Of a DNA stretch of 240 nt, positions 1 to 240 are shown in pieces. Position numbers and translations under genes: made by a program. The notes under the pieces were generated by a model. It was not told where the DNA came from, did not search any database, and saw only the letters and a program-made list of their open reading frames with translations. Origin of the DNA: Escherichia coli (GTDB taxonomy: Bacteria; Pseudomonadota; Gammaproteobacteria; Enterobacterales; Enterobacteriaceae); assembly GCF_003334255.1 (NCBI RefSeq), contig NZ_QOWU01000277.1. One strand, written 5' to 3'. Numbering within the stretch: the stretch's first letter is position 1; the number at the start of each line of letters is the position of its first letter.

Positions 1-240
1 TCACTGAGAACGTCCCACGCCTTACGCTGTTGTGCCAGGTACGCATTAAAGGTCATCCGCGGCTCTGTGCCCCCGAATCCATCCGGGACCGTCTGGTCGC
101 AGTACTGCCCGATGGCATACAGCGCCCACTTGTCCACATCCGCCGCCCCCAGGCGTTTTCCCATCCCGTAGCGCGGGTGAGTCAGCATGTCCCACAGGCA
201 CCAGGCCGGGTTGTTGCTGTATGCCGGTTTCAGACTGCCG
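1..240 (-). CDS. J: Internal fragment (partial at both ends) of a lambdoid phage tail-tip / host-specificity protein, lambda gpJ-like (central tail fiber). Codon register is the complement of + positions 3-239, giving 79 complete codons.
   Basis: Seen in sequence: the reverse-complement frame reading + positions 239 down to 3 has no stop codon in 79 codons; the other two minus-strand frames hit stops (e.g. TGA at + 232-234, TAA at + 46-48). Codon usage is strongly biased as in enterobacterial genes (CTG for Leu, CCG for Pro, GCG for Ala; third-position GC about 61/79, or 77%). From memory, not a search: the translation closely matches the lambda gpJ segment ...KPAYSNN-AWCLWDMLTHPRYGMGKRLGAADVDKWALY-IGQYCDQ-VPDGFGGTEPR...NAYL--QRKAWDVLS. 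No start or stop is in the window, so the gene continues past both edges. Confidence 0.88.
1..240. mobile_element. Part of the tail-morphogenesis module of a lambdoid phage or prophage (no element boundaries in window)
   Basis: Inference from the gpJ-like CDS: J-family tail-tip genes are found in lambdoid phage genomes and in prophages of enterobacteria. GC (62.5%) is above a typical enterobacterial chromosomal average, in line with lambdoid tail regions. No att site, integrase or repeat is visible here, so phage versus prophage cannot be decided. Confidence 0.6.

Follow-up and report, generated by a model that had tools for sequence, protein, structure and literature searches.

The tail module of phage lambda runs V-G-T-H-M-L-K-I-J-lom-stf-tfa, and in the prophage P-EibA of Escherichia coli ECOR-9 (AF151091; P-EibC, P-EibD and P-EibE are of the same kind) the depositors' gene order is J-lom-orf-401-orf-191A-eibA-orf-156A-orf-60A-eaaA. 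The DNA analyzed here is a stretch of 240 nt from E. coli contig NZ_QOWU01000277.1 (assembly GCF_003334255.1), called the window in the following. The window is an ordinary internal stretch of the J gene of a lambda-like E. coli prophage. It is very probable that this J is intact and that lom, a tail fibre gene and cargo of the P-Eib type lie beyond its stop codon.

Seven complete E. coli chromosomes contained the window at 100% identity. The flanks were read from the 30-kb neighbourhoods of six of them (L001-L006); the seventh, H34, agreed with H33 in both length and coordinates. Gene identities, gene order, intactness and distances were taken directly from these exact-match genomes, and the flanks of the window itself, judged from the exact matches, presumably resemble them. 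Flank features, which all lie on the minus strand, are given in window coordinates extrapolated from L002 (locus coordinate minus 15000).

Compared with lambda, the order of I, K, L, M, H, T, G and V was identical, and lom followed J in five of the six loci. In contrast to lambda, J was 25-44 residues longer, Stf had collagen-like repeats, a DUF4376 protein stood in the place of tfa, and extra cargo followed. In L002, L005 and L006 this tail tip was paired with an HK97-like head module.

The same three loci, which end at ompW, had the gene order of P-EibA. L002 and L005 were 98.2-98.8% identical to it at the nucleotide level over about 10.7 of 11.3 kb, and EaaA, ORF-191A and ORF-156A were 99.6%, 100% and 97% identical, respectively. 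However, a segment of about 590 nt, which codes for the N-terminal Eib head, was replaced, and the Eib of L002 was only 57% identical to EibA overall. The loci ending at yecD (L001, L003 and L004) differed further by lacking eaaA and ending in dinI, and L001 also lacked lom and had another J C-terminus. Phages PhiR12_1-PhiR12_5 and PhiR5_1 (PV340545-PV340554) contained the window at 98.3-99.2% identity, with the same tail order, an eib-like gene, orf-156, a small orf, dinI and a J allele of the L001 type; for the shared module, PhiR12_1-PhiR12_5 reached 98.8-99.2% identity.

The window lies within gene J

A single described part was located in the window:

1 to 240, minus strand, internal segment of J (tail tip/central tail fibre), residues 262-340, conserved N-terminal part

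The minus-strand frame was uninterrupted over the full 240 nt, and its 79-aa product is GSLKPAYSNNPAWCLWDMLTHPRYGMGKRLGAADVDKWALYAIGQYCDQTVPDGFGGTEPRMTFNAYLAQQRKAWDVLS. This peptide aligned without gaps to residues 262-340 of the lambda Tip attachment protein J (PDB 8iyk_J, E 1.2e-46) and matched PHROG 31, 'central tail fiber J' (E 2e-52). The window also fell at residue 262 onward in all six fetched J proteins. An earlier sequence-only reading of this DNA had placed the window inside a minus-strand J, which the lambda alignment and the open frame confirmed; the residues that it gave, 264-342, were near but off by two.

Compared with lambda J, the window showed 38 nucleotide differences, which were distributed as 5, 5 and 28 over codon positions 1, 2 and 3, and the changed codons comprised 23 synonymous and 9 non-synonymous cases. 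At the sequence level, the homology and the substitution pattern against lambda J are decisive for the identity as J. The open frame alone was not significant, because 198 of 2000 shuffled windows (about 10%) also gave two open frames, the number found in the window (the minus-strand J frame and frame 3 of the plus strand, among six).

The second open frame and the short internal open reading frames (ORFs) of 28-51 aa could suggest that something else is embedded in the window, for instance a gene on the opposite strand, a structured RNA or a repeat element. However, the shuffles reproduced the two frames at the rate given above, and the substitutions tracked the J frame. No Rfam match at the gathering threshold was obtained for the window, L002 or L003, the J-sense RNA fold of the window was not better than that of shuffles (z = 0.91), and repeats were limited to matches of 10-12 nt, which is the chance level. 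An embedded feature is therefore extremely improbable, and no feature besides the J coding sequence was seen in the window by frames, Rfam, fold or repeats.

The J gene and the tail module

The gene containing the window and its neighbours on the right were located as follows:

-2451 to 1022 (L001: -2508 to 1022), minus strand, whole J
1272 to 3302, minus strand, I, K and L, with M, H, T, G, V, U and Z further right

J was uninterrupted in all six fetched loci, with 1157 aa in five of them and 1176 aa in L001, compared with 1132 aa in lambda. The full J of L003 (1157 aa) was 66% identical to lambda J from end to end over 1159 aligned columns. The length of about 1130 aa in the sequence-only reading was nearly right. 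Its distances held well: the J start, expected about 0.8 kb to the right, was 782 nt beyond position 240 in the six loci, and the J stop, expected about 2.4 kb to the left, was 2452 nt before position 1 (2509 nt in L001).

Rightward of J, PHROG assignments identified I, K (C40 peptidase), L, M, H (tape-measure), T, G, V, U and Z in the six loci. This order, I-K-L-M-H-T-G-V-U-Z, matched that of the lambda genome in a direct comparison, so the I/K/L-type genes predicted to the right of the window were present in lambda order throughout. As in lambda, J was the last gene of the tail operon, straight after I, K, L and M. Its transcription would run leftwards within the late tail operon (...H-M-L-K-I-J), and by analogy J probably works as in lambda.

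Defective lambdoid prophages are common, and the window segment was present in a median of 2 and a maximum of 12 copies per E. coli genome, which could point to a cryptic prophage remnant with J as a pseudogene fragment outside any intact tail module and without cargo. We regard this as very unlikely, since J was uninterrupted at 1157-1176 aa within a complete head-tail module in every fetched exact-match locus, and the frame in the window is open and under purifying selection. Neither a truncated J nor a non-lambdoid gene order, which the earlier reading had named as findings that would contradict it, was seen in any of the six loci.

The J proteins of L001 and L003 were identical over residues 1-700, while their last about 190 residues were only 20-28% identical. 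Such a divergence would fit a receptor-binding end that can be swapped. The window thus belongs to the conserved part of J and not to the host-range end; it would encode part of the N-terminal region that builds the tail tip rather than the C-terminal receptor-binding end. The L001 allele was common to phage PhiR12_1 (96%). The 3' end of J in L001 corresponds to 12492-13011, and the adjoining 12308-12491 is without lom.

The gap between I and J (L002 16023-16271) was about 250 nt long, compared with 60 nt in lambda, and contained no convincing ORF in L002. Two conserved, GC-rich hairpins were observed in this gap; a T-run came after one of them, close upstream of the J start, and an A-run stood before the other. 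Elsewhere in the prophages, tandem repeats of about 162 nt were suggested in L002 25324-26090, inside a coding sequence of 2748 nt annotated as 'portal protein'. In pairwise BLAST between L002, L005 and L006, the gene matched itself at shifts of 162 and 324 nt with 89-94% identity, and this large gene was annotated as frameshifted in L005 and L006.

The variable region beyond the J stop

To the left of J, the first genes were:

-3118 to -2519, minus strand, lom, flanked by terminator-like hairpins, absent in L001
-5300 to -3269, minus strand, Stf-like collagen-repeat fibre and DUF4376/orf-191

About 2.45 kb left of the window, the variable prophage end would thus begin with lom, followed by the collagen-repeat side tail fibre and its DUF4376 partner. 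lom was found in five loci, and its product was 41% identical to lambda Lom. The N-terminus of the fibre was 53% identical to lambda orf-401/Stf. The DUF4376 protein, which occupies the tfa position, belonged to PHROG 1141, labelled only 'tail fiber protein'; it was rejected as a homologue of lambda Tfa, as no similarity was found. Of the region of lom, stf and tfa type that had been predicted here, lom (with the exception of L001) and the stf-type fibre were therefore recovered, but not tfa.

The distribution of genes in this region was that of morons by position: eaaA was restricted to the ompW-type loci, lom was variable, and NleA or NleC stood there in relatives. Terminator-like hairpins were found after the J stop and after the lom stop, and promoter-like matches did not exceed the level of shuffles (6 versus 5.5). 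Between the DUF4376 gene and eib there was a gap of about 680-800 nt (35-37% GC in L002). A search of the 680-nt gap upstream of eib for hidden genes yielded only short ORFs of at most 109 aa without support. The hairpins around lom and the AT-rich region upstream of eib are what autonomous inserted units would be expected to show. lom, eib and eaa may be expressed independently in the lysogen.

In a third prophage type (L016-L018), which adjoins a gene for a LytS-type histidine kinase, a toxin gene of the hok/gef family (46 aa) replaced lom right after J (L016 424-564, L017 665-805, L018 17-157).

Eib, EaaA and the prophage ends

Beyond the gap, the cargo genes were located as follows, the last four lines in locus coordinates:

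-7855 to -5983, minus strand, eib-type trimeric autotransporter and orf-156, after the AT-rich gap
-12136 to -8129, minus strand, SPATE EaaA, only in the ompW-type loci L002, L005 and L006
L001 8049-9323, eib
L003 7681-8763, eib
L005 7645-9018, eib
L002 8208-8932 (versus L009 4003-4592), exchanged Eib head region

The Eib proteins matched EibD (PDB 2xqh, E 8e-82; also 2xzr) and the YadA anchor (2lme, E 2e-18), so that both an EibD-like coiled-coil stalk and a YadA-type C-terminal anchor were present. In all four alleles, identity to EibA or EibC was 59-94% over the C-terminal 166-274 residues. The N-terminal heads, however, were of four different kinds among the exact-match loci (L001, L002, L003 and L005). 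The head thus behaves like an exchangeable cassette, and in L002 and L005 the flanking DNA was 98-99% identical to P-EibA. Some relatives of EibG (Cla) are reported to lack IgG binding (2025 preprint 10.64898/2025.12.25.695649). Because the heads differ and these relatives lack IgG binding, binding of IgG or IgA Fc by the Eib proteins described here cannot be assumed. A stem-loop is annotated after eibA in AF151091.

Two kinds of endings were distinguished. In the yecD-type loci, orf-156 was followed by a 57-aa membrane orf and by dinI, with yecD and aspS adjacent. The ompW-type loci continued with orf-156, orf-60, an S6 peptidase of 1335-1341 aa and an ompW remnant. This peptidase, the EaaA referred to above, is a SPATE: it matched the passengers of Pic and Hbp (E 1e-224 and 1e-220), an EspP-like barrel and TIGR01414, and had a GDSGS motif at residue 260. 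After the fibre genes, the P-Eib cargo would therefore begin with a predicted immunoglobulin-binding Eib and orf-156, continue with a small membrane orf and close with EaaA or dinI at the attachment site (ompW or yecD).

eaaA and eaaC were linked to eib genes on the ECOR-9 prophages, and eaaC was transduced experimentally (review PMC3153244). This review on eaaA/eaaC, together with the annotation of AF151091 and the identity to it, indicates that the cargo was already known. A PADLOC scan of ten proteins from the flanks and cargo gave no match to a defence system, only coiled-coil noise (E > 0.002). The cargo is of the virulence or colonisation type (Eib, EaaA) and neither novel nor defence-related. 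The sequence-only reading was thus right in expecting accessory cargo beyond the low-coordinate edge, as Eib, EaaA or dinI extended up to the prophage end in all six loci.

The orf-156 gene

orf-156 (156-157 aa) followed eib in all six fetched exact-match loci. In the records examined, including the original ECOR-9 deposits, it was labelled only hypothetical or ORF-156. No significant match was obtained with Pfam (for the single sequence or for all family members), NCBIfam or PADLOC, PHROG placed it in family 6585 (function unknown), and in a search of 5.8 billion proteins all homologues were from E. coli and named 'hypothetical'. A literature search on orf-156 and ibrAB found nothing relevant. 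Activation of eib by IbrAB is reportedly treated in a primary paper.

Sequence searches gave nothing, and information came from comparing structures alone. The AlphaFold2 model, for which an alignment of 20 sequences was used, was confident, with a predicted local distance difference test score of 86 and a predicted template modelling score of 0.80. The top about 34 PDB matches in Foldseek were all response regulators of the NarL/FixJ type. The model predicts a LuxR/GerE-type four-helix helix-turn-helix DNA-binding domain, preceded by an alpha/beta N-terminal half.

A NarL/FixJ response regulator was considered and rejected. The N-terminal half had four strands before the helix-turn-helix, whereas a receiver domain has five; strand 1 was followed by A-T-R-N and no acidic pair, with D52 after strand 3 alone nearly invariant; and there was no match to Pfam Response_reg. 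For these reasons orf-156 was not filed as a response regulator.

In the four contexts of orf-156 homologues that were sampled, the gene usually came directly after an Eib-like gene, in phages as well as plasmids. Homologues with 65-68% identity directly followed an eib-like gene in another prophage and in Rep3/CcdAB plasmids. A strict linkage between eib and orf-156 was rejected because a 55%-identical homologue stood alone beside hpaBC, with no eib remnant.

In the Rep3/CcdAB/PIN-MazE plasmids (L019-L021 1-4918), the eib-like gene and the orf-156 homologue were situated after a gene for a 1439-aa YadA-type adhesin and a BamE/OmpA-domain gene. About 160 phage records, mostly of Stx-converting phages, also matched orf-156 at 60-80% identity. 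In Stx2a phages (for example CP111102.1 10728-11011 and NC_041935.1 44756-45039), among the matches listed, only residues 25-156 of orf-156 were covered, in two pieces making up 58% of the query; on its sequence, this match looks like a decayed copy.

It is possible, though doubtful, that orf-156 is an unrecognised LuxR/GerE-type regulator with a truncated, phosphorylation-independent receiver-like domain, as the model would allow, which travels with Eib-type genes on phages and plasmids and controls them or neighbours such as eaaA.

Mosaicism and relatives with other cargo

The seven exact matches represented two backbones, one with a lambda-like head (homologues of E, D and FI) at yecD and one with an HK97-like head at ompW. 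The two had one block of 7.6 kb in common (L002/L003 10705-18318, 99.6% identity), which spans the stf N-terminus, lom, J, I, K and L.

The window was also widespread outside the exact matches, and many Stx-converting phages (Stx1a, Stx2a) contained the same 240 nt at 97-98% identity. Two of the relatives carried other genes after the tail fibre. BP-4795 was arranged as J-lom-tail fibre-IS629-NleA, with IS629 copies present, and the Stx1a phage Stx1_14744 as J-lom-tail fibre-hyp-nleC-dinI. The window could accordingly derive from such a related lambdoid phage or prophage, Stx-converting or effector-carrying, with the same tail order but NleA/NleC-type effectors of the type III secretion system instead of Eib and EaaA. 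This origin is unlikely: none of the Stx or effector phages was an exact match, the best phage records (PhiR12_1 and PhiR12_4) reached 99.2%, and all six fetched exact matches carried eib and orf-156.

Some observations nevertheless weigh against assigning P-Eib-type cargo to the window. At identities of at least 95%, about 1800 E. coli chromosomes and 133 phage records contained the window, and other cargo (NleA, NleC) is found among them. The seven exact matches themselves comprised two backbones, two integration sites, four Eib heads and one locus without lom. Because the exact matches vary in this way, the precise cargo cannot be fixed from the window. An intact J followed by lom, fibre and P-Eib-type genes is still the explanation that we consider very probable.

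In PhiR12_1, two adjacent genes split the DUF4376 gene (L008 3906-6208); their depositors named them 'Transposase / Integrase' and 'ATP-binding transposition helper protein'. The same phage had an extra block between K and L (L008 13304-15316), one gene of which was noted as an antirepressor. Given this block, accessory genes can also be located to the right of J, and the earlier expectation of cargo on the left describes a tendency rather than a rule.

Implications

The window holds nothing but J coding sequence, and its flanks would correspond to a known lambdoid tail module with P-Eib-type cargo. A variable region is present as predicted, and its contents are already on record: lom, the tail fibre with collagen-like repeats, the Eib adhesins and the SPATE EaaA. 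This confirms, as a useful rule, that accessory genes of lambdoid prophages gather behind J, lom and stf; across the relatives, the position was taken by Eib/EaaA, NleA, NleC or hok/gef. The only part with research value is orf-156. Its predicted LuxR-type DNA-binding fold, together with the recurrent pairing with Eib-like genes, provides a testable idea for the regulation of the poorly expressed Eib adhesins.
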